Shown piece by piece: positions 8,201 to 64,000 of a stretch of 64,000 nucleotides of DNA. The position numbers and the translations under genes are program-made. Within the stretch, counting starts at the first letter, position 1. Each line of letters opens with the position of its first letter. The DNA is from Escherichia coli (GTDB lineage: Bacteria; Pseudomonadota; Gammaproteobacteria; Enterobacterales; Enterobacteriaceae), in the NCBI RefSeq assembly GCF_022846255.1, contig NZ_AP025682.1; one strand, written 5' to 3'. Under the pieces are notes generated by a model that saw only the letters and a program-made list of their open reading frames with translations, was not told where the DNA came from and ran no database searches.

Positions 8201-10480
8201 ATGAAGAAAAAAATTGAATCCTACCAGGGAGCTGCCGGTGGTTGGGGTGCTGTTAAATCCGTAGCGAATGCAGTACGTAAGCAGATGGATATACGCCAGG
8301 ATGTTATTGCCATGTTTGACATGAATAAGCCAGAGGGCTTTGACTGTCCGGGATGTGCATGGCCAGATCCTAAGCACAGTGCGTCATTCGACATTTGTGA
8401 AAACGGCGCAAAAGCAATCGCCTGGGAAGCCACGGATAAGCAGGTAAATGCCTCTTTCTTTGCTGAGAATACGGTTCAATCATTACTTACCTGGGGAGAT
8501 CACGAGCTTGAGGCTGCGGGACGTCTCACTCAGCCTTTGAAATATGATGACGTCAGCGACTGTTACAAGCTATTAAGCTGGCAACAAGCTTTCGACGAAA
8601 TTGGCGAACGCCTTCAAAGCTATAGTGATCCCAATCAGGTTGAATTCTATACTTCGGGCCGCACTTCCAATGAAGCTGCCTTTCTTTATCAGCTTTTTGC
8701 CCGTGAATACGGGAGCAATAACTTCCCCGACTGCTCCAACATGTGCCATGAACCGACCAGTGTGGGTTTGGCAGCGAGTATCGGTGTAGGTAAAGGGACC
8801 GTGTTGCTGGAAGACTTTGAGAAATGCGATTTAGTCATTTGCATTGGGCATAACCCTGGTACAAACCACCCTCGCATGTTGACTTCGTTGCGCGCTTTAG
8901 TGAAACGGGGAGCGAAAATGATCGCCATCAATCCTCTACAGGAACGTGGCCTGGAGCGATTTACCGCACCGCAAAACCCGTTTGAAATGCTGACGAACTC
9001 TGAGACTCAGTTGGCCAGTGCCTACTACAACGTGCGCATTGGTGGTGATATGGCGTTGCTCAAGGGGATGATGCGCCTGTTAATTGAGCGCGATGATGCT
9101 GCAAGCGCCGCAGGTCGGCCCTCATTGCTGGATGACGAATTTATTCAAACGCATACCGTCGGCTTTGACGAGCTACGCCGTGACGTGCTCAATTCCGAGT
9201 GGAAAGATATCGAACGTATTTCTGGATTAAGTCAGACTCAAATCGCCGAACTGGCTGATGCATATGCCGCTGCCGAACGCACCATTATCTGTTACGGAAT
9301 GGGGATCACTCAGCACGAACATGGTACCCAGAATGTACAGCAACTGGTCAATCTGCTGTTGATGAAAGGTAACATTGGCAAGCCTGGTGCGGGTATCTGC
9401 CCACTACGAGGTCACTCTAATGTACAGGGCGACCGAACCGTCGGTATCACCGAGAAACCGTCTGCAGAGTTTCTGGCTCGCCTGGGTGAGCGCTATGGTT
9501 TCACCCCACCTCATGCACCTGGACATGCTGCAATTGCCAGCATGCAAGCAATATGTACGGGGCAGGCTCGCGCATTGATCTGCATGGGGGGCAACTTTGC
9601 ACTGGCAATGCCAGATCGGGAAGCGAGCGCTGTACCGTTAACGCAATTAGATCTGGCGGTACACGTTGCCACTAAGCTTAACCGCTCTCATCTGCTGACC
9701 GCACGGCATAGCTATATTCTGCCGGTTCTGGGACGTAGCGAGATTGACATGCAAAAAAGCGGTGCGCAGGCGGTAACCGTTGAAGATTCAATGTCGATGA
9801 TTCATGCCTCGCGTGGTGTGTTAAAACCCGCCGGTGTAATGCTGAAATCAGAGTGTGCAGTGGTCGCGGGAATCGCGCAAGCAGCACTACCCCAGAGCGT
9901 GGTAGCCTGGGAGTATCTGGTGGAAGATTATGATCGCATTCGCAATGACATTGAAGCTGTGCTGCCAGAGTTTGCCGACTATAACCAGCGCATCCGTCAT
10001 CCTGGTGGTTTTCACCTGATAAACGCAGCAGCTGAAAGGCGCTGGATGACGTCGTCAGGTAAGGCTAATTTCATTACCAGTAAAGGGCTGTTAGAAGATC
10101 CCTCTTCAGCGTTTAACAGTAAGCTGGTCATGGCGACAGTACGCAGTCACGATCAGTACAACACGACGATTTATGGTATGGATGATCGCTATCGAGGGGT
10201 ATTCGGTCAACGAGATGTGGTCTTTATGAGTGCTAAACAAGCTAAAATTTGCCGTGTAAAAAACGGCGAAAGAGTTAATCTTATTGCACTCACGCCAGAC
10301 GGTAAACGTAGCTCACGCCGCATGGATAGATTAAAAGTGGTCATTTACCCTATGGCTGACCGCTCACTGGTGACCTATTTTCCAGAATCGAATCACATGC
10401 TAACACTTGATAACCACGATCCATTAAGTGGCATTCCTGGCTATAAAAGTATTCCGGTTGAATTAGAACCATCAAATTAA
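8201..10480 (+). CDS. ydeP: Acid-resistance molybdopterin oxidoreductase (formate dehydrogenase-like, FdhF family)
   Basis: 759-aa ORF matching YdeP length and sequence; no in-frame TGA. Confidence 0.92.
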
Positions 10481-37811: not shown

Positions 37812-39509
37812 ATGGAACCAAAAACAAAAAAACAGCGTTCGCTTTATATCCCTTACGCTGGCCCTGTATTGCTGGAATTTCCGTTGTTGAATAAAGGCAG
37901 CGCCTTCAGCATGGAAGAACGCCGTAACTTCAACCTGCTGGGGTTACTGCCGGAAGTGGTCGAAACCATCGAAGAACAAGCGGAACGAGCATGGATCCAG
38001 TATCAGGGATTCAAAACCGAAATCGACAAACACATCTACCTGCGTAACATCCAGGACACTAACGAAACCCTCTTCTACCGTCTGGTAAACAATCATCTTG
38101 ATGAGATGATGCCAGTCATTTACACCCCAACCGTCGGCGCAGCCTGTGAGCGTTTTTCTGAGATCTACCGCCGTTCACGCGGTGTGTTTATCTCTTACCA
38201 GAACCGCCACAATATGGACGATATTCTGCAAAACGTACCAAACCATAATATCAAAGTGATTGTGGTGACTGACGGCGAACGTATTCTGGGGCTTGGTGAC
38301 CAGGGCATCGGCGGGATGGGCATTCCGATCGGTAAACTGTCGCTCTATACCGCCTGTGGCGGCATCAGTCCGGCCTATACCCTTCCGGTGGTGCTGGATG
38401 TCGGCACCAACAACCAACAGCTGCTTAACGATCCGCTGTATATGGGCTGGCGTAATCCGCGTATCACTGACGACGAATACTATGAATTCGTTGATGAATT
38501 TATCCAGGCTGTGAAACAACGCTGGCCGGACGTACTGTTGCAGTTTGAAGACTTCGCACAAAAAAATGCGATGCCGTTACTTAACCGCTATCGCAATGAA
38601 ATTTGTTCTTTTAACGATGACATTCAGGGCACCGCGGCGGTAACAGTCGGCACACTGATCGCAGCCAGCCGCGCGGCAGGCGGTCAGTTAAGCGAGAAAA
38701 AAATCGTCTTCCTTGGCGCAGGTTCAGCGGGATGCGGCATTGCCGAAATGATCATCGCCCAGACCCAGCGCGAAGGATTAAGCGAGGAAGCGGCGCGGCA
38801 GAAAGTCTTTATGGTCGATCGCTTTGGCCTGCTGACCGACAAGATGCCGAACCTGCTGCCTTTCCAGACCAAACTGGTGCAGAAGCGCGAAAACCTCATC
38901 GACTGGGATACCGACAGCGATGTGCTGTCACTGCTGGATGTGGTGCGCAATGTAAAACCAGATATTCTGATTGGCGTCTCAGGACAGACCGGACTGTTTA
39001 CGGAAGAGATCATCCGTGAGATGCATAAACACTGTCCGCGTCCGATCGTGATGCCGCTGTCTAACCCGACGTCACGCGTGGAAGCCACACCGCAGGACAT
39101 TATCGCCTGGACCGAAGGTAACGCGCTGGTCGCCACTGGCAGTCCATTTAATCCAGTGGTATGGAAAGATAAAATCTACCCTATCGCCCAGTGTAATAAC
39201 GCCTTTATTTTCCCGGGCATCGGGCTGGGTGTTATTGCTTCCGGCGCGTCACGTATCACCGATGAAATGCTGATGTCGGCAAGTGAAACGCTTGCTCAGT
39301 ATTCGCCGCTGGTCCTGAACGGCGAAGGTCTGGTACTGCCGGAACTGAAAGATATTCAGAAAGTATCCCGCGCAATTGCGTTTGCGGTTGGCAAAATGGC
39401 GCAGCAGCAAGGCGTGGCGGTGAAAACCTCCGCCGAAGCTCTGCAACAGGCCATTGATGATAATTTCTGGCAAGCCGAATACCGCGACTACCGCCGTACC
39501 TCCATCTAA
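37812..39509 (+). CDS. maeA: NAD-dependent malic enzyme
   Basis: 565 aa from [23 protein letters not shown]…. Confidence 0.95.
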
Positions 39510-42676: not shown

Positions 42677-45600
42677 TTACGCCTTCTCGATGTTGACTAA
42701 GAACGCTTTATATTCCGGCGTTTGCGAGTTTGCATCACCGACATTCGGCGTCAGAGTGTTAGCGATATAACCTTTACGCGCGACACCCTCAAAGCCCCAG
42801 TGGATCGGAATACCCACCGTTTCAACCTGCTGACCGTTTACATTCAGCGGTTTCAGACGGCGCGTTACCACCGCCACCGCGCGGATAAAGCCACGCTTGC
42901 TTGAGACAGTGACACGATCGCCATTATTAATGCCTTTCGCCGCCGCCAGCGTTTCGCTGATTTCCACAAACTGTTCCGGCTGAGCAATTGCGTTGAGCAA
43001 CGCGTGCTTGGTCCAGGTGTGGAAGTGCTCGGTCAGACGATAGGTCGTACCCACATACGGGAACTGCTCTTTTTTACCCATCCGCAGCGCGTCTTGTTCA
43101 TACAGACGAACGACCGGGTTAGACACCACGTTCGGATGCAGCGGGTTAGTGCCCAGCGGCGTTTCAATCGGCTCGTAGTGTTCCGGGAACGGACCTTCCG
43201 CCATTTTGTTGATGGCAAACAGGCGTCCCATCCCTTCCGGCTGCATGATAAACGGTCCGGTTGGTGTACCTGGCGCGGCATTGCCGAAGTCCGGAATATC
43301 GTTACCCGTCCACTTGCTGCCGTTCCACTGAATCAGCATCCGTTTCGGATCCCACGGTTTACCGTTGATATCCGCCGAAGCACGGTTGTAGAGTACGCGA
43401 CGGTTGAGCGGCCACGCCCAGGCCCATCCCAGCGTATTCCCCAGACCAGATGGGTCAGAGTTATCGCGGTTAGCCATCTGGTTGCCCTGCTCTGTCCAGC
43501 TACCGGTGTAGATCCAGCAAGACGATGCGGTTGTACCGTCATCACGCAGATGCGCAAAGCTACTCAGCAACTGACCTTTCTTCGCAATCAGCACGCCATT
43601 GGCATCATAGAGATCTTCCAGCGCGTAGCCGTTGTTCTCTTTCGCTACTTCGTCAGATTGCGGTTCGTGCGGCTGCTTGTAGTTCCAGCTCATCTTCATC
43701 AGCGGTTCTACGCCTTTACCACCCTCGGCCTGGTACAGCTCGCGCAGATGATGGTAGATACCCGCCAGAATTTCGCCGTCGTTACGTGCTTCGCCCGGCG
43801 CGTCCTGACCTTTCCAGTGCCACTGCAACCAGCGACCGGAGTTAGCGATAGAACCATCTTCTTCAGCAAAGCAGGTCGAAGGCAGACGGAATACTTCAGT
43901 CTGAATAGATGCCGGATCGACATCGTTCGACTCGCCGTGGTTCTGCCAGAAGGTAGAGGTTTCAGTCACCAGCGGATCGATAACCACCATGTACTTCAGT
44001 TTGCTCAGGCAGCTCACCACTTTGTTTTTGTCCGGGAAGGACGCAACCGGGTTAAAGCCCTGGCAGAAATAACCGGTGACTTTGCCTTCGTCCATCATGT
44101 TGAAATACTTGATGACGTCGTAGGTCTGGTCCCACTTCGGCAGCCAGTCGTAGCCCCAGTTGTTCTCTTTCTGCGCGGCATCGCCGTAGAAAGATTTCAT
44201 CAGGCTAACGAAAAACTTCGGATAGTTGCTCCAGTAGTTCACCTGATCAGCCAGCGTCGCTTTCGGCGTGTTCGCTTCCAGATACGACTGCAAATCAACC
44301 TGTTTTTCTGACGGCAGCGTCAGATAACCTGGCAGGCTGGTAGAGAGCAGGCCTAAGTCAGTCAGGCCCTGAATGTTGGAGTGACCACGCAATGCGTTCA
44401 CGCCGCCACCGGCCATACCCATGTTACCGAGCAGCAACTGGATCATCGCCATCGTACGGATGTTCTGCGCACCCACGGTGTGCTGCGTCCAGCCCAGCGC
44501 GTACAGGAAGGTGGTTGTGCGATCCGGTGCGCTGGTGGAGGCCAGCACTTCACACACTTTCAGGAAGTCGGCTTTTGGCGTACCGCAAATGTTTTCTACT
44601 ACGTCCGGCGTGTAGCGGGAAACGTGCGCTTTCAGCAGATTCCATACACAGCGCGGATGAGTCAGCGTGTCATCGCGTTTCGCATAGCCGTTTTCATCGA
44701 ACTGATAGTTCCAGGACGACTTATCGTATTGACGTTTTTCAGCGTCGTAGCCGCTGAACAGACCGTCTTCGAAAGCAAAATCATCACGCACCAGCAGGCT
44801 GGCGTTGGTGTAATGCTTAACGTATTCGGCGTTGATTTTGTTGTTTTCGATCAGGTAGCGCAAAACGCCAGACAGGAACGTAATGTCCGTACCGGAACGA
44901 ATAGGTGCGTAAATATCCGCCACAGAAGCGGTACGCGTAAAACGGGGATCGACAACGATCAAGGTTGCATCGTTGTTGTTTTTCGCTTCCATCGCCCAGC
45001 GGAAACCGACGGGATGCGCTTCAGCAGCGTTACCGCCCATCACCATTACGACGTTAGCGTTTTTGATATCCACCCAGTGGTTGGTCATCGCACCGCGACC
45101 AAATGTTGGAGCAAGACTTGCTACCGTTGGTCCGTGTCAGACGCGCGCCTGGTTGTCTACCGCCAGCATCCCGAGGGAGCGGGCAAATTTTTGAGTCAGC
45201 ATCCCGGTTTCGTTGCTGGCACCGGAAGCACACAGCATACCGGTAGAAAGCCAACGGTTTACCGTTACGCCCTGCTCGTTCTTTTCAATAAAGTTAGCGT
45301 CACGGTCGGCTTTCATCAGCTTCGCAATACGGGAGAATGCTTCTTCCCAGCTAATGCGCTGCCATTTGTCAGAACCTGGCGCACGATATTCCGGGTAGCG
45401 CAGACGGTTTTCGCTGTTGACGTAATCCAGCAAACCGGCCCCTTTCGGGCACAGCGCACCACGGCTTACCGGATGATCCGGGTCACCTTCAATGTGATAA
45501 ATCGCTTCTCTGGCGTTTTTCGCGCCATCACCCAGGCTATACATCAATAGCCCGCAACCTACGGAACAGTATGTGCAGGTGTTACGGATCTCTTTCGCGC

Positions 45601-57908: not shown

Positions 57909-58136
57909 TTACATGCTGTAACCGGGTTTCTTTATCAAAGCCTCCATTTGGGGCTCGACTTCGGCATCCCAGATAGCTTGCCAAGATTCTGGTTGAATCT
58001 GCTGTAGAGAAATGCTTATCGAGCTATCTTTACTGTTCAGATGGCGAATAATAACGTCGGTAATATCTGCAGCAAGTGCTGCTTTTTGTTGTTCGTCCAG
58101 TTCACGCGGAAAACATTTAATGTCTATGTGCGGCAT
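57909..58136 (-). CDS. pptA: Tautomerase (4-oxalocrotonate tautomerase family)
   Basis: 75 aa from [18 protein letters not shown]… with N-terminal Pro after Met. Confidence 0.88.
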
Positions 58137-58441
58137 GATTGTGCTCCTTTTGAAAGATGTCAGTAAAATTAACACACGTTGTGAATGTCGTGTGTCCGGT
58201 AATGCGTTTTTACGGCAATAATGCCTACTTGAAATTGTACATATTTGTACTACACACTTTTAAATAAAGCGCCAATGAAAACGTTAACTTGCAGAATATA
58301 TTCTTCGCCAACATGCCATTAAGAAAACATCAAGTTCCCGGCTTGCCAATTTGTTAACGCCCATTATAGTTATTCTTGCCCTCACTAAAAATTTTCATCC
58401 GTAATTACCCCCAATAAAAATCCATTCTGGAGACGCTTAAG

Positions 58442-60418
58442 ATGCAGCTTAATCATATCGTTAAAAGTCTGCTAATAACGGGATTATTCACCACCAGTTC
58501 TTTACCTCTCCTCGCGGCGGAAGCTCCTAAAGACGCCACCGCAGCCACGCAACAAGCAAACAATTTACTCTACAACCAGTTGCCGTTTGCCGATAACACT
58601 GACTTTACTGATGCCCATAAAGGTTTTATTGCCCCTATCCCTCAAGACGTGATTAAGGGCGAACAAGGGAATGTTATCTGGGATCCACAACATTACGCTT
58701 TTATCAAAGAAGGCGATAAAGCCCCTGATACGGTGAATCCGAGTTTATGGCGTCAGGCGCAACTGATAAATATCAGCGGGTTATTCGAAGTAACTGAAGG
58801 TGTCTATCAGATTCGCAATCTCGATCTATCAAATATGACCATCATTGAAGGCAAAGAGGGTATTACCGTCGTTGATCCCCTTGTTTCAGCAGAAACAGCC
58901 AAAGTGGGTATGGATCTCTATTACAAAAATCGCGGCAAAAAACCGGTAGTGGCGGTTATCTATACACACAGTCATGTCGATCACTACGGTGGTGTTCGTG
59001 GCGTAATTGATGAAGCTGACGTTAAATCAGGCAAAGTTAAAATCTATGCGCCAGCCGGATTTTTGGAGGAAGCCGTTTCCGAAAACATCATGGCTGGCAA
59101 TGTTATGAGCCGACGAGCCAGTTATATGTATGGCAACTTATTGAAACCTGATGTTAAAGGCCAGGTGGGGGCTGGACTGGGAACGACTACTTCAGCAGGA
59201 ACAGTCACGTTGATTGCTCCTACTAACTACATCACCAAAACCGGACAAATAGAAACTATTGACGGGTTGACTTATGATTTCCTGATGGCGCCAGGTTCTG
59301 AAGCGCCTTCTGAAATGCTGTGGTTTATTGAAGAAAAGAAACTGATCGAAACCGCTGAAGATGTCACGCACACCCTTCATAACACCTATTCGCTGCGTGG
59401 GGCTAAAATTCGCCAACCGCTGCCGTGGTCAAAATATATTAATGAAGCTCTCAATTTGTGGGGTGATAAAGCCGAGATTATTCTCGCTCAACATCACTGG
59501 CCAACCTGGGGCAACGATAACGTGGTCAAACTGCTTAAAAGCCAGCGTGATTTGTATCGTTACATCAATGATCAAACTCTGCGCATGGCTAATCAAGGGA
59601 TGACCCGTGATGAAATTGCCGCAAACTTTAAACTGCCCTCTTCACTGGCTAACACCTGGGCGAATCGCGGCTATTACGGTTCGGTAAGTCATGACGTGAA
59701 AGCAACTTACGTGCTTTATCTCGGCTGGTTTGATGGTAACCCCGCGACGCTTGATGAACTGCCGCCAGAAGAAGGCGCAAAAAAATTCGTCGAGTATATG
59801 GGCGGTGCTGATGCCATTTTACAGAAAGCCAAACAGGATTATGACCAGGGTAATTTCCGCTGGGTTGCCCAAGTTGTTAGTAAGGTGGTGTTTGCCGATC
59901 CAAACAACCAGGCAGCGAGAGATCTGGAAGCTGATGCGCTTGAGCAGTTAGGCTATCAGGCTGAATCTGGGCCGTGGCGTAATTTCTATCTCACTGGTGC
60001 ACAGGAATTGCGTAATGGCGTACAAAAATTACCAACACCAAATACTGCCAGCCCAGACACCGTGCGTGCGATGACGCCGGAGATGTTCTTTGATTATCTT
60101 GCCGTCCATATTAATGGTGAGAAAGCGGCAGATGCCAAAACCGTGTTGAATTTCGATTTTGGTGAAGATGGCGGCACCTATAAAGTGGAGCTTGAAAATG
60201 GTGTTCTCAATCATACCGCTGGTGTAGAGGCTTCGGATGCTGATGCCACTATCACTCTGTCTCGTGATGTATTGAACAAAATTGTACTGAAAGAAGAGAC
60301 GCTGAAAGAAGCCACGGCCAAAGGAGATGTCAAAATTACTGGCAATGCGGAAAAACTCAACGAGCTGTTAGGTTATATGGATAATTTTGAATTTTGGTTC
60401 AATATAGTGACACCATAA
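58442..60418 (+). CDS. Secreted alkyl/aryl-sulfatase of the metallo-beta-lactamase fold (SdsA1/YjcS-like)
   Basis: 658 aa; signal peptide (…TTSSLPLLAAEAP); MBL zinc motif THSHVDHYGG; not at this position in K-12 as far as I recall. Confidence 0.8.
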   Translation: MQLNHIVKSLLITGLFTTSSLPLLAAEAPKDATAATQQANNLLYNQLPFADNTDFTDAHKGFIAPIPQDVIKGEQGNVIWDPQHYAFIKEGDKAPDTVNPSLWRQAQLINISGLFEVTEGVYQIRNLDLSNMTIIEGKEGITVVDPLVSAETAKVGMDLYYKNRGKKPVVAVIYTHSHVDHYGGVRGVIDEADVKSGKVKIYAPAGFLEEAVSENIMAGNVMSRRASYMYGNLLKPDVKGQVGAGLGTTTSAGTVTLIAPTNYITKTGQIETIDGLTYDFLMAPGSEAPSEMLWFIEEKKLIETAEDVTHTLHNTYSLRGAKIRQPLPWSKYINEALNLWGDKAEIILAQHHWPTWGNDNVVKLLKSQRDLYRYINDQTLRMANQGMTRDEIAANFKLPSSLANTWANRGYYGSVSHDVKATYVLYLGWFDGNPATLDELPPEEGAKKFVEYMGGADAILQKAKQDYDQGNFRWVAQVVSKVVFADPNNQAARDLEADALEQLGYQAESGPWRNFYLTGAQELRNGVQKLPTPNTASPDTVRAMTPEMFFDYLAVHINGEKAADAKTVLNFDFGEDGGTYKVELENGVLNHTAGVEASDADATITLSRDVLNKIVLKEETLKEATAKGDVKITGNAEKLNELLGYMDNFEFWFNIVTP

Positions 60419-60432
60419 ATTTACTGCATACC

Positions 60433-60456
60433 GGGCAGGTATCCTGCCCTTTTTTG
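60433..60456 (+). terminator. Rho-independent terminator after the alkylsulfatase gene
   Basis: gggcagg-tat-cctgccc followed by tttttt. Confidence 0.75.
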
Positions 60457-60464
60457 GTTAAAAA

Positions 60465-61562
60465 ATGGCTGAACGAAGAAAAACGCATCACTCATGGAAA
60501 ACCCGCCGCGATATGGTTATTCGCGGCATGACGATTAGTTTGCCATGGTTTGCTTTTATCAATGTCAGTTTTGCATTGATAATTTTGCTGCGCCGTGTTC
60601 TGTTTAATGACCTTACTCCACCCTGGTTAAATGAAAAAAGCCTTATACATTCTATTGATATATCTGCAACGGGTATTCTGCTGATTTGCAGTGGTTTACT
60701 ACTCATCCCTCGGCAAAAAACATTACCTATCCAGGTGCTATTAGTTGCCCTGAGCCTGCTATGGTCATGGTGTAGTTATCACTTTATTGCGTACTGGACG
60801 CTGCAGTTTGCTTATCCACTATGTGTATTATTAATGCTTAGTGGCGTTGTCGCACTTTATTTCCATACCCCATCATTGCTCGCATTTGTCATTCCCTTAT
60901 GGTTCACCACTCCAATAGCGAGTCTTATGCTTAATCAACAGATCAATATTCATTTTGCTGTTGTATGGTGTATTTTTTCACTGGCGCTATATGGTGGGCG
61001 ACTCATTTTGTTACGTTGGTTTGAAGAAGCATGGGTACAAAACAGTTATAACAACCAGTTAATTAATCGCCTTGATGCATTAGCACATCGCGATCCTTTA
61101 ACTGGGATAGCAAACCGACGTGCAATGAACAGTATCTTACACGACGCGATGGATAACGGCGGGTCATTTGCTCTTATTATGCTGGATGTCGATTTTTTTA
61201 AACGTTACAACGACACTTACGGGCATCCTGCTGGGGATCGTTGTCTAATACAAGTTGCCGACGCTCTACAGCGTTCAACTCGCCAGTCGGAGGATGTTGT
61301 TGTCCGTTATGGTGGCGAAGAGTTTGCCATCATACTTTTTAATGCAACATTGCCGGAAGCAGAGACGGTAGCAGCCAGAGTGAAGCAAGAACTTAAACTG
61401 GCAGCTATCCCACATCAGGCATCTGCTGTTAATGCATTCGTTACGGTTAGTCAGGGGATTACCTGTTCTGCTCCCGCAAAAACGGCTGAACAAATTATTT
61501 CAGATGCCGACGCTGCGTTATACCGGGCGAAAGAAAGTGGGCGAAATCGATGGGCTTTATAA
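60465..61562 (+). CDS. Membrane-anchored diguanylate cyclase (multi-TM N-terminal domain + GGDEF domain)
   Basis: ~200 aa hydrophobic N-terminus with 5-6 TM segments, then GGDEF hallmarks: DPLTGIANRR, RYGGEEF, ADAALYRAKESGRNR; AT-rich; start codon uncertain. Confidence 0.8.
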   Translation: MAERRKTHHSWKTRRDMVIRGMTISLPWFAFINVSFALIILLRRVLFNDLTPPWLNEKSLIHSIDISATGILLICSGLLLIPRQKTLPIQVLLVALSLLWSWCSYHFIAYWTLQFAYPLCVLLMLSGVVALYFHTPSLLAFVIPLWFTTPIASLMLNQQINIHFAVVWCIFSLALYGGRLILLRWFEEAWVQNSYNNQLINRLDALAHRDPLTGIANRRAMNSILHDAMDNGGSFALIMLDVDFFKRYNDTYGHPAGDRCLIQVADALQRSTRQSEDVVVRYGGEEFAIILFNATLPEAETVAARVKQELKLAAIPHQASAVNAFVTVSQGITCSAPAKTAEQIISDADAALYRAKESGRNRWAL

Positions 61563-61635
61563 GCATTAGGGGACTGGACAGATTACGTCTCTCCTCGCTT
61601 AACAAGGGCTGACGGAGGGTAATAATTGTCTATAG

Positions 61636-62187
61636 CTATCTTCTTAGCGATGTCTTTCTGGTATCACATTGGATCGGTGCAATTATTTTTCCTTTAATAC
61701 CCATTATGTTAAGAAATTCAGAACCAGCTGTAATCTCATTGTTTTTTTCATTCGTCTTGATCTTCCAAGGAATCTGACTGTGCATTATTGAGAACACACT
61801 AATAACGTGAATCGCTCCCTTGCGACGACTCTTGTCATAAGAGTACCGGAGCGTTTTTCCATCAATTGCAATGACGTCTTTATCATCTGAAGAATGGCAG
61901 TCAAGCATCCAGTTAATAAAGCACTCATGAAATTTTTCAGGACTGATACAGGATACAACTCTGGCAATGGTATCGTGAACAGGAATACCATTATCAAAAT
62001 CACCATATTGCTTCAAAAAATCGAGATGTGTTTCCCCAAAATCCTCTATATCTTCCCAGCCTTCTGCACCCGAAATAACGACACAAATAGTCAACAGTAG
62101 AATATCCGATAATTTATGCTCCACTTTCCAGGCTTGTCTGTAATCGGGGATAATAGAAATATGTTCCATCAATTTTTTAAGTTCCAT
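61636..62187 (-). mobile_element. ISAs1-family (H-repeat, YdcC/YhhI-like) transposase, 5' fragment only (about codons 1-190, frameshifted near its end)
   Basis: [63 protein letters not shown]… is the H-repeat protein N-terminus as I recall it; frame breaks after …IKGKII and similarity ends about 75 bp before the DGC stop. Confidence 0.8.
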
Positions 62188-62360
62188 TTTGTTCTCCTTA
62201 ATTATGTAAAGAGTATTTGATCATGTATAAGCAATAAAAAACAGCTTTAGGTAATGAGGAATATCTCAATTTTTAAACATAAAATGCGAATTATTTAGTA
62301 CAAAAAAGCAGCGTTACGTGATCTTTCCATGGAAAAGAGAGTAATACACTGATTTTTAAC

Positions 62361-62395
62361 GCAGATTGCCAGTGCTACCAACACTGACAATCTGC
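62361..62395 (+). promoter_or_regulatory. 14-bp imperfect inverted repeat upstream of the symE-like gene (candidate operator)
   Basis: gcagattgccagtg-N7-cactgacaatctgc, one mismatch, about 35 bp upstream of ATG 62428. Confidence 0.35.
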
Positions 62396-62427
62396 TCACC
62401 ACAAGCAACTAACAGAGGTAGTTAATC

Positions 62428-62747
62428 ATGGCTGAACACGATATTACGCCAGAAGTCGCCATTTCCAAAACACAGCGCCGCTATAAAGTCGGCTATGTCA
62501 GAGCCCGCCACATAAACAGCAAACCACGTACTACTCACGACACCCCAGCCTGAACCTTAAGGGCGACTGGCTGAAAGAGGCCGGATTTGATACCGGACGG
62601 GGTGTCACGGTGAAGATTTCGGAGGGGTGCCTGACCATCATCGCTGACAGTGACGAGGTGCAGGAACTGCGGGAGGAACTTTATCAGGTTAAACAGGTGG
62701 TTAAGGGGATGCGGAACGGGATGTTTAGTGTGCTGAACGAGAATTAA
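62428..62747 (+). pseudogene. SymE-family (type I toxin-like, AbrB-fold) gene with an apparent -1 frameshift
   Basis: Frame A gives MAEHDITPEVAISKTQRRYKVGYVRARHINSKPRTTHDTPA then TGA at 62551; frame -1 continues LNLKGDWLKEAGFDTGRGVTVKISEGCLTII…, resembling the SymE core (ITLKGQWLEAAGF…EGC) as I recall it. Confidence 0.6.
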
Positions 62748-62797
62748 ATAATAAAAAAGCCGGGGAGATTTAAAATCTTCCCGGCTTTCTTTATCAT

Positions 62798-63100
62798 CTA
62801 AAAAGGTAATAATCCTCTAATAGGAGAAAATTTTGTAATATCAATACCTTGTAATTTAAAGTAATTAAAAGCATCTTCTATATTGGAAAACGCACTAATT
62901 TCTTCAGTTGCATAATCTTCGAACACTTCCATTTTATTTTCTGGTATTTTGAAAAAATAGGTATTGTATTTTTCATCCTGTTTTTTAATGGCATATTGGA
63001 AAAAATAACTTTCACCATTTATTTCCTTTATCTCATCAAAACCTCTAACCTTACCATTCTCTATAGCAACAATTAATTTTTCAATAGACAAATCAACCAT
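62798..63100 (-). CDS. Small acidic protein, candidate immunity protein
   Basis: 100 aa, D/E-rich; start overlaps the stop of the upstream basic ORF by 8 bp; AT-rich codon usage. Confidence 0.5.
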   Translation of the reverse strand: MVDLSIEKLIVAIENGKVRGFDEIKEINGESYFFQYAIKKQDEKYNTYFFKIPENKMEVFEDYATEEISAFSNIEDAFNYFKLQGIDITKFSPIRGLLPF

Positions 63101-63440
63101 CTATATCTATCCTCACCATTGTCCCATCAGAACGTTTAATATTTATATGAGGCAAAGAACCATGCCCTGTGCCTTTATGGTCATCATGACCATATACACG
63201 ACCAGTATTAGAATCAATAGGGTAATCTTTCCTATAACGGACAGTACCATCTCTTTTCTTAAATTGTTCCATCTTATGTTTTTTTCTAATACCGGCGGCA
63301 TCCTGCGAACTGATCCCTCTTACTTTTTGAGCATCAGGAAAGGCCTCCATCAATAAATCATGGGCTTCCTGTTTTGATTTAACTGTGACAACGGTTCCTT
63401 GAGGCCCCAGGGCAAGATTACGAAAGCCCGCTCCCCGCAA
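63093..63440 (-). CDS. Small basic His-rich protein, candidate orphan toxin domain (possibly HNH/EndoVII-type nuclease tip)
   Basis: 115 aa, K/R-rich with [21 protein letters not shown]; no Rhs DPxGL or CdiA VENN junction visible; its start overlaps the ISAs1 transposase stop, so the N-terminal part may not be genuine. Confidence 0.45.
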
Positions 63441-64000
63441 GGACTGACGCCAGATAGTTTCTGTCCATGGCTGCTTTTCGCATCTTACGTCTTAACCCTG
63501 CCTTGAATACCTTATCATTCGTCAAAATATTAATAGCGATGTGCCGTATCCCTGAAAATAATTCTGCTGCATTTCCTCTTCTTATTTTGCAGTCGTCTTC
63601 ATTCATTACCACGTCCAGACGCCAGTGCAGCTTATTCTCCACGTGCCAGTGGTTTCGGATTGCTGTGGCGAACTTCTCTGCGGTTAAATCAGCAGAACTG
63701 ATATAATATCTGACCGTCATTTCTGGCTATTTCTTTTGTTCTGCTATTATGGACCGAAAGGAGACTGCCACGCATAATTTCTTCAGTCCTTTCCATTCAA
63801 ACGTGAAATCAATAAGTTCATCAGGGACATCGCAAACAATATGAAGACGGATTTCTTCTCTGCCGTGACTTTTTTCACTAATTGCGTAACTGTCATGCTC
63901 TGGATTATTCAATTCTTTCAGCGGAAATTTTTCCTCGAAGGCTTTATTTAGCCGCCCCTGGTTTCCTTTTACAGCGAATAAATAATCACCTCCCTGTTTT
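63418..64000 (-). mobile_element. ISAs1-family (H-repeat) transposase, 3' portion, interrupted by an in-frame TAG; continues beyond the window
   Basis: Reverse-strand translation from the window edge reads [43 protein letters not shown]…AEQKK-(TAG at 63727..63729)[45 protein letters not shown]…. Confidence 0.8.

Follow-up and report, generated by a model that had tools for sequence, protein, structure and literature searches.

Two ISAs1-family insertion sequences of different age at an eroded Rhs toxin locus in Escherichia coli

The window analyzed here is a full 64-kb (64,000-nt) stretch of contig NZ_AP025682.1 from Escherichia coli (assembly GCF_022846255.1). At its distal end, two pieces of insertion sequences (ISs) of the ISAs1 family, also known as H-repeats, lie on either side of a cassette made up of a toxin-like open reading frame (ORF), a putative immunity gene and a symE-like gene. 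In all probability, this region is the distal end of an Rhs/type VI secretion system (T6SS) effector locus, at the rhsE site by pptA, that has been eroded by two independent ISAs1-family elements of different age. One is an old relic that lacks its right end, and the other is a much younger copy of ISEc1 whose intact right end is joined directly to the toxin-coding sequence.

Both pieces were measured against a 1292-nt ISEc1 copy of strain Z1322HEC0003. Comparison of 12 copies from differing contexts set the ends of the element at CAGGG...CCCTG, the right-end CCCTG being CAGGG inverted, and its length at 1291 bp. The relic aligns from 62328 to 61637 with ISEc1 positions 3–695 at 90.8% identity, which becomes positions 1–695 (62331..61637) with the ends taken from the 12 copies. 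The original prediction had described it as the 5' fragment of an H-repeat transposase at 61636..62187, frameshifted and missing its 3' half, and the ORF list, the NCBIfam model NF033564 and the DNA alignment bear out these coordinates, the strand and the defects. At the DNA level, the relic is larger than first noted, with a 143-nt leader and the left terminus still present. Its 183-codon N-terminal ORF (62187..61636, minus strand) matches the NF033564 ISAs1 transposase model at positions 1–142 of 314 (E = 3.5e-47). In strains 104 and MEI003, the NCBI annotation pipeline (PGAP) lists the orthologue as an ISAs1 family transposase that is “frameshifted; incomplete; missing C-terminus”. The frameshift is one 1-nt deletion at IS position 653 (around 61679), 42 nt ahead of the truncation point. 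The left terminus is slightly mutated, with CATGG for CAGGG (left end CATGGAAAGATCA versus CAGGGAAAGATCA), and there is no right end: homology stops at IS position 695, 74 nt from the stop codon of the GGDEF gene.

The second copy (64000..63406) aligns with ISEc1 positions 698–1292 at 99.0% identity without gaps and matches NF033564 at positions 158–314 (E = 5.6e-49; 167 bits against a cutoff of 70). The E-values of both DNA alignments are 0, which excludes a chance origin. The right terminus is intact, with ...CTTGCCCTG ending at 63408 and the transposase stop at 63420–63418, and the terminal ...CGTAATCTTGCCCTG at 63408 is the same as in 11 other copies. The description of this piece as a 3' portion (63418..64000) with an in-frame TAG, running off the window, was also correct. 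A single TAG at 63729–63727 (E279*) disrupts the transposase frame 63999..63418. Since the site is GAG in all four references examined (K-12, ST540, Z1322HEC0003 and contig L005), the TAG is a single G-to-T substitution private to the window. That the copy is a “3' portion” at all is an effect of the window edge; nothing shows that it is truncated.

The DNA alignment to ISEc1 finds only these two ISAs1 matches in the window, and they differ in how far they have drifted. The relic is 89.8–92.2% identical to eight full copies, which are 93.8–97.7% identical to one another over the same half, and its best full-length matches among 5,426 complete E. coli genomes do not exceed 93% identity. The second piece is 96.6–99.0% identical to the same eight copies, inside their mutual range. 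The relic and the cassette are present without the second copy, and with the same neighbors, in 347 complete E. coli records at 95% identity or more. Strains 104 and MEI003 have the same order of GGDEF gene, relic, symE-like gene, immunity gene and toxin. By these comparisons, the pieces are two elements of different age, the relic old and the second copy much younger. The claim of at least two decayed IS copies rather than one split gene thus holds, on account of the order of the pieces, their differing divergence and the occurrence of the relic alone.

The “toxin” has a larger context in its relatives. In strains 104 (L001) and MEI003 (L002), the toxin frame runs on upstream into Rhs sequence with a DPLGL motif, and the motif PxxxxDPxGL, in frame with the Rhs core before the toxin, was found in both strains and in homologues P0004–P0010. 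This identifies the toxin as an Rhs C-terminal tip. Strain 104 has it after a complete Rhs core that is preceded by vgrG and a DcrB-like gene, and in MEI003 the same module occurs as an orphan tip with a degenerate core stub. The annotated core of strain 104 is out of frame with the toxin at GLAGG (L001, around 9940–9990), and the toxin is annotated as a separate 85-aa hypothetical protein; this break may be a real frameshift or may come from a sequencing error. The window has the IS end where the Rhs core and the first 12 residues of the toxin, through ...SLRE, would be, which leaves 104 of 116 residues. ISEc1 thus cuts the toxin 12 codons past the DPLGL self-cleavage motif, and what is left, having no delivery shell, would no longer be deliverable.

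Neither the toxin nor the immunity protein has a Pfam or NCBIfam match. The toxin family is tiny, with 20 homologues among 5.8 billion proteins (from E. coli, metagenomes and one Pseudomonas). Several of these carry Rhs stubs, and the homologues share a conserved core starting with GSQDAxGIRKK. In homologue P0003, an Rhs core repeat (...EFGRAVEKEG) is fused directly to the toxin's PQGTVV..., and in P0013, which has 73 member sequences, a related toxin end and the immunity protein form a single ORF. An AlphaFold model of the toxin, with a confidence score (pLDDT) of 57, was too poor to use. The immunity ATG overlaps the toxin stop (ATGGTTGA), with GAGGA 10 nt upstream.

The symE-like gene encodes 109 aa and is intact in relatives. 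The intact orthologue matches the NCBIfam SymE model NF010128 with E = 1.2e-13 and 50.9 bits, which is below the cutoff of 132. The window copy is split by a 10-nt deletion, AACCTACATG, into two plus-strand ORFs (62428..62553 and 62610..62747). The same deletion is found in contigs L005–L008, and it lies inside a match to the isrA family, one of two RNAs antisense to the gene, of which the isrA-family RNA is above the Rfam threshold and the symR-like RNA is below it. SymE genes have been reported inside contact-dependent inhibition and orphan effector clusters (PMC11278526, PMC3942780). Cassette matches in the “ecoli_genomes” set are nearly all chromosomal, with plasmids accounting for 27 of 26,251 places. 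The cassette of Rhs C-terminal tip, immunity gene and symE-like gene is native to this site.

The junction between the young IS and the cassette is precise to the terminus: strains 104 and MEI003 are homologous to the window as far as 63408, and ISEc1 homology begins at 63406–63409. None of the 5,426 complete genomes has the second copy beside the cassette, and pattern scans for the junction found none in GTDB representatives or in JGI metagenomes. It is present with 100% identity in contig L005, from a European Nucleotide Archive (ENA) metagenome, and in the Logan contigs L006 and L007, each from its own run. The read sets behind these three assemblies are ERR2349758 and DRR322657, and the symE deletion of the window is found in all three contigs. 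The junction is genuine but rare. An exact look-up of the 100-aa C-terminal transposase ORF returned unrelated ISEc1 contexts only, and a protein search with the Rhs-linker peptide for IS-truncated Rhs returned only short unrelated fragments.

From the anatomy, the two IS lineages and this precise and rare junction, we infer an order of events, a mechanism for the join and selection on the immunity gene. The older element, seated at the boundary between the Rhs array and the sulfatase/GGDEF gene pair, would have lost everything past position 695 and then been inherited vertically in many E. coli lineages. The right terminus of the young ISEc1 would later have become joined to the Rhs toxin-coding sequence, severing the tip and the immunity and symE-like genes from the Rhs core that delivered the toxin. 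One route would be transposition of ISEc1 into the rhs gene; such a simple insertion predicts a 10-bp duplication, GGGGCCTCAA, at the left end of the second copy. The other would be an IS-anchored deletion, either by intramolecular transposition or by insertion and subsequent recombination with a copy already resident upstream. The TAG in the transposase, the 10-nt deletion in symE and the undeliverable toxin may then represent later decay. The immunity gene would have been kept intact, presumably for protection against neighbors firing this toxin.

The locus in other strains has a bearing on the mechanism. The original prediction had called for a comparison with the K-12 rhsE-ydcD-yncI-ydcC locus, in which ydcC proves to be a full ISEc1 in the same orientation, with its right end abutting the equivalent of window position 58225, just upstream of pptA. 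K-12 thus corresponds to the window without 58226..63407, and one breakpoint coincides exactly with the IS terminus. The other candidate, yncI, is a third ISAs1-like pseudogene, associated with K-12 RhsE, that is only 67–70% identical to either window piece, which rules it out as the orthologue of the relic. A supposed symE remnant at the left flank of the K-12 IS was a 10-nt match only, without BLAST support, and was discarded. E302 also has a full ISEc1, with its right end at the equivalent of 57965 and part of pptA lost, and with its left flank upstream of the place of rhsE in K-12. The pptA-sulfatase junction is kept in 684 genomes. Most of the others break at 58225, and a further class, represented by Ec-042-T20-ESBL, breaks at 58186 with an ISEc1 truncated at position 916.

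One site at which ISEc1 with intact termini has varied flanks and no target duplications fits the signature of IS-anchored deletions, either adjacent ones or those arising from insertion and IS-IS recombination, and the window junction fits such a series. On this basis, the suggestion of IS-mediated rearrangement is plausible, considering the junction at an intact ...CCCTG, its absence from the complete genomes and the K-12 and E302 flanks. Tentatively, and with the odds rather against it, the window might preserve one intermediate step of several deletions, each anchored at ISEc1, by which the rhsE-pptA region took shape across E. coli, with junctions at 63407 (window), 58225 (K-12) and 57965 (E302), all at the intact right end of the IS. 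If so, the series would be natural evidence that the Rhs-associated H-repeat takes an active part in decapitating Rhs toxins and in the erosion of their loci, which the immunity genes survive.

A related but somewhat less likely alternative is that the second copy is the resident element of K-12 ydcC, old rather than recent, and that the window is the least-deleted state, from which the K-12 and E302 types arose by successive deletions from the IS right end. The K-12 deletion ending exactly at the IS terminus and the same terminus joined further in, at 57965, in E302 are what this would predict. A rare and deep lineage is also possible, considering that none of the 5,426 complete genomes exceeds 98.0% identity to the core genes of the window at 38000–61600 (fdn, the narZ operon, yddE-pptA and the sulfatase), which are 95.8% identical to K-12, while the cassette, by contrast, is 99.0–99.2% identical; the DNA seems to come from an Escherichia lineage that has been poorly sampled. 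However, the K-12 left flank (yncI/ydcD/rhsE) has no trace of this toxin's linker sequence, the left flank of the window copy lies outside the window, and the second copy is 99.0% identical to other ISEc1 copies but only 97.6% to ydcC. Moreover, independent insertions combined with IS-IS recombination would yield the same pattern.

Several observations weigh against the account of an old relic and a separate, younger ISEc1. The left end of the second copy and its flank, which would distinguish insertion, adjacent deletion and IS-IS recombination, are beyond the window. The TAG, present in the window only, could be a sequencing error. Contig L005, which is the sole contig to cross the IS and contains it at full length, was rejected as an extension past 64000: it differs from the window at 11 of 272 positions between 63729 and the window edge, and its IS is joined to a T6SS-1 vgrG that a collinear genome (strain 2014C-3338) has in the same orientation but at a distance of 1.3 Mb, so that it is probably chimeric across IS copies. 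Finally, the end of the relic at IS position 695 and the window edge at position 698 are almost exactly complementary. This is treated as a coincidence, with a chance of about 0.5%, and would matter if 64000 were a true contig end.

Such complementarity (1–695 and 698–1291) is what would be expected if the two pieces were halves of one element, split by the cassette or circularly permuted, for example, from a circle of IS and cassette opened in the middle of the IS. An end-like sequence, CAGGGAGGTGATTA, with the CAGGG motif, is also found at around IS position 700. This explanation is nevertheless very improbable. Both pieces are on the minus strand, in the one orientation on either side of the cassette that the original prediction stated, and the 3' piece comes first on that strand, an order incompatible with insertion into a single element. 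The alignment to an intact element that had been called for defines the ends and breakpoints and does not yield one contiguous element, with the relic diverging from ISEc1 by 9% and the second piece by only 1%, and the relic occurs without the other piece in the 347 records. Position 698 is merely the edge of the window, and no other partial copy breaks near 695–700; those among about 20 fetched loci break at 380, 671, 912, 916, 935 and 950. The idea that the pseudo-end CAGGGAGGTGATTA caused the relic breakpoint was dropped for the same reason.

An assembly artifact at a repeated IS is a similarly poor explanation for the junction. ISEc1 is multicopy, L006 and L007, both short-read contigs, reach only about 30 nt into the IS, and L005 looks chimeric further in. 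However, the identical junction in the window and in three assemblies from two read sets, joined exactly at the IS terminus as at a true IS boundary, makes such an artifact hard to credit. Least credible of all is that the IS copies form a composite transposon that captured and mobilized the cassette: the two are directly oriented around 1.1 kb, but the relic lacks a right end, so that the pair cannot act as a composite transposon, both transposases are dead, and the cassette is fixed at this chromosomal site, in frame with or beside an Rhs core, in genomes without the second copy, and is nearly absent from plasmids. The “capture” half of the original suggestion is thereby set aside.

The features of the IS/cassette region are listed in Table 1. 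In the final 8 kb of the window, the gene order is yddE, nhoA, yddH, pptA, the alkyl-sulfatase gene and the GGDEF gene, followed by the IS/cassette region. From the window edge downward, the minus-strand ORFs are the transposase frame, a 115-codon ORF (63440..63093) and a 100-codon ORF (62798..63100). Elsewhere in the window, there is a SECIS element at 45084–45142 on the minus strand, presumably for the selenocysteine of fdnG (formate dehydrogenase-N), which is ordinary.

Table 1. Features at the distal end of the window, in order of position.
Feature	Coordinates	Strand	Basis
5' remnant (IS positions 1–695) of an old ISAs1-family (H-repeat) element	61637..62331	−	DNA alignment and NF033564; PGAP annotation of orthologue
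symR-like antisense RNA over the 5' end of the symE-like gene	62358..62433	−	RF01809, 48.3 bits against gathering threshold of 61, E = 1.8e-7
symE-like type I toxin pseudogene	62428..62747	+	ORF list; 10-nt deletion AACCTACATG after 62522
isrA-family Hfq-binding small RNA, antisense inside the symE-like gene	62499..62617	−	RF01385, 96.4 bits against gathering threshold of 51
G+C-rich terminator-like hairpin between the convergent symE-like and immunity genes	62756..62788	not assigned	
Putative immunity gene, 100 aa, intact	62798..63100	−	No known family
Decapitated Rhs C-terminal toxin tip	63093..63407	−	Final 104 of 116 residues after DPLGL; no known family
Young ISEc1 copy, 3' part (positions 698–1291), leaving the window	63408..64000	−	Alignment, NF033564 and terminus comparison

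Some observations on ISEc1 at other loci concern its mobility. H-rpt elements accompany Rhs C-terminal tips, and their transposition has been reported as not observed (PMC3032704). (One literature match for “ISEc1” was, in fact, to ISEc12 and was discarded.) An ISEc1 in an O-antigen cluster (L012/L015, 9024–11609) is flanked by a perfect 10-bp target duplication, CCTTATATAG, which shows that ISEc1 has transposed in nature. A second ISAs1-family copy, 89% identical to ISEc1, lies about 40 nt beyond it. In strain 2014C-3338 (L011, 500–1850), an ISEc1 beside yafV is enclosed by remnants of another copy, a left-end one of 25 nt and a right-end one of about 27 nt, which suggests insertion of the IS into an older, eroded copy or recombination with one. 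In L005, the ISEc1 left end abuts codon ~106 of the T6SS-1 vgrG (2716/2717). This junction is absent from all complete genomes and suggests further recent activity of ISEc1 against T6SS genes.

The significance of the region beyond annotation is small. The cassette is best described as an Rhs toxin tip left stranded along with an immunity gene that has survived, and the IS pieces as unrelated events rather than parts of a mobile unit. As a modest comparative point, IS-driven loss of T6SS/Rhs weaponry has left a natural record at this site, which hints that H-repeats have been mobile.

Among known systems, the closest counterpart of the second copy is K-12 ydcC (H-repeat/ISEc1, ISAs1 family), which is 97.6% identical and has the same termini (CAGGG...CCCTG), orientation and position, at the distal end of the Rhs array by pptA. 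However, the right end of ydcC is at the pptA promoter region, whereas that of the window copy is at the toxin tip, 5.2 kb further out, and ydcC is intact, while the window copy carries its private TAG. Like the window, K-12 has one good and one decayed copy, the latter being yncI, a decayed ISAs1-family gene at the same locus, but at 67–70% identity to the window pieces it is not the counterpart of the relic.

The cassette resembles the Rhs C-terminal tips and orphan toxin-immunity modules in having a tip that follows PxxxxDPxGL in its relatives and an overlapping downstream immunity gene, as in the orphan with a core stub in MEI003. It differs in that the window tip has no core stub at all and begins 12 codons into the toxin at the IS end, so that it could not be re-armed by recombination with an rhs core. 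The symE-like gene resembles the symE/symR type I toxin-antitoxin system and the Salmonella isrA small RNA in combining a putative SymE-family ORF with antisense RNAs, a symR-like candidate and an isrA-family match, but the window gene is frameshifted by its 10-nt deletion. The breakpoint exactly at an intact terminus, the lack of a target duplication and the nested variants at one locus are also seen in IS-mediated adjacent and IS-IS deletions, a mechanism that is not demonstrated for ISEc1. Nothing is new about the two IS types, their association with Rhs tips (PMC3032704) or decay of this sort, and the region is a case of ordinary toxin-locus decay rather than a new system. What is new is only the rare allele, an insertion or a deletion, by which an uncharacterized Rhs toxin has been decapitated.

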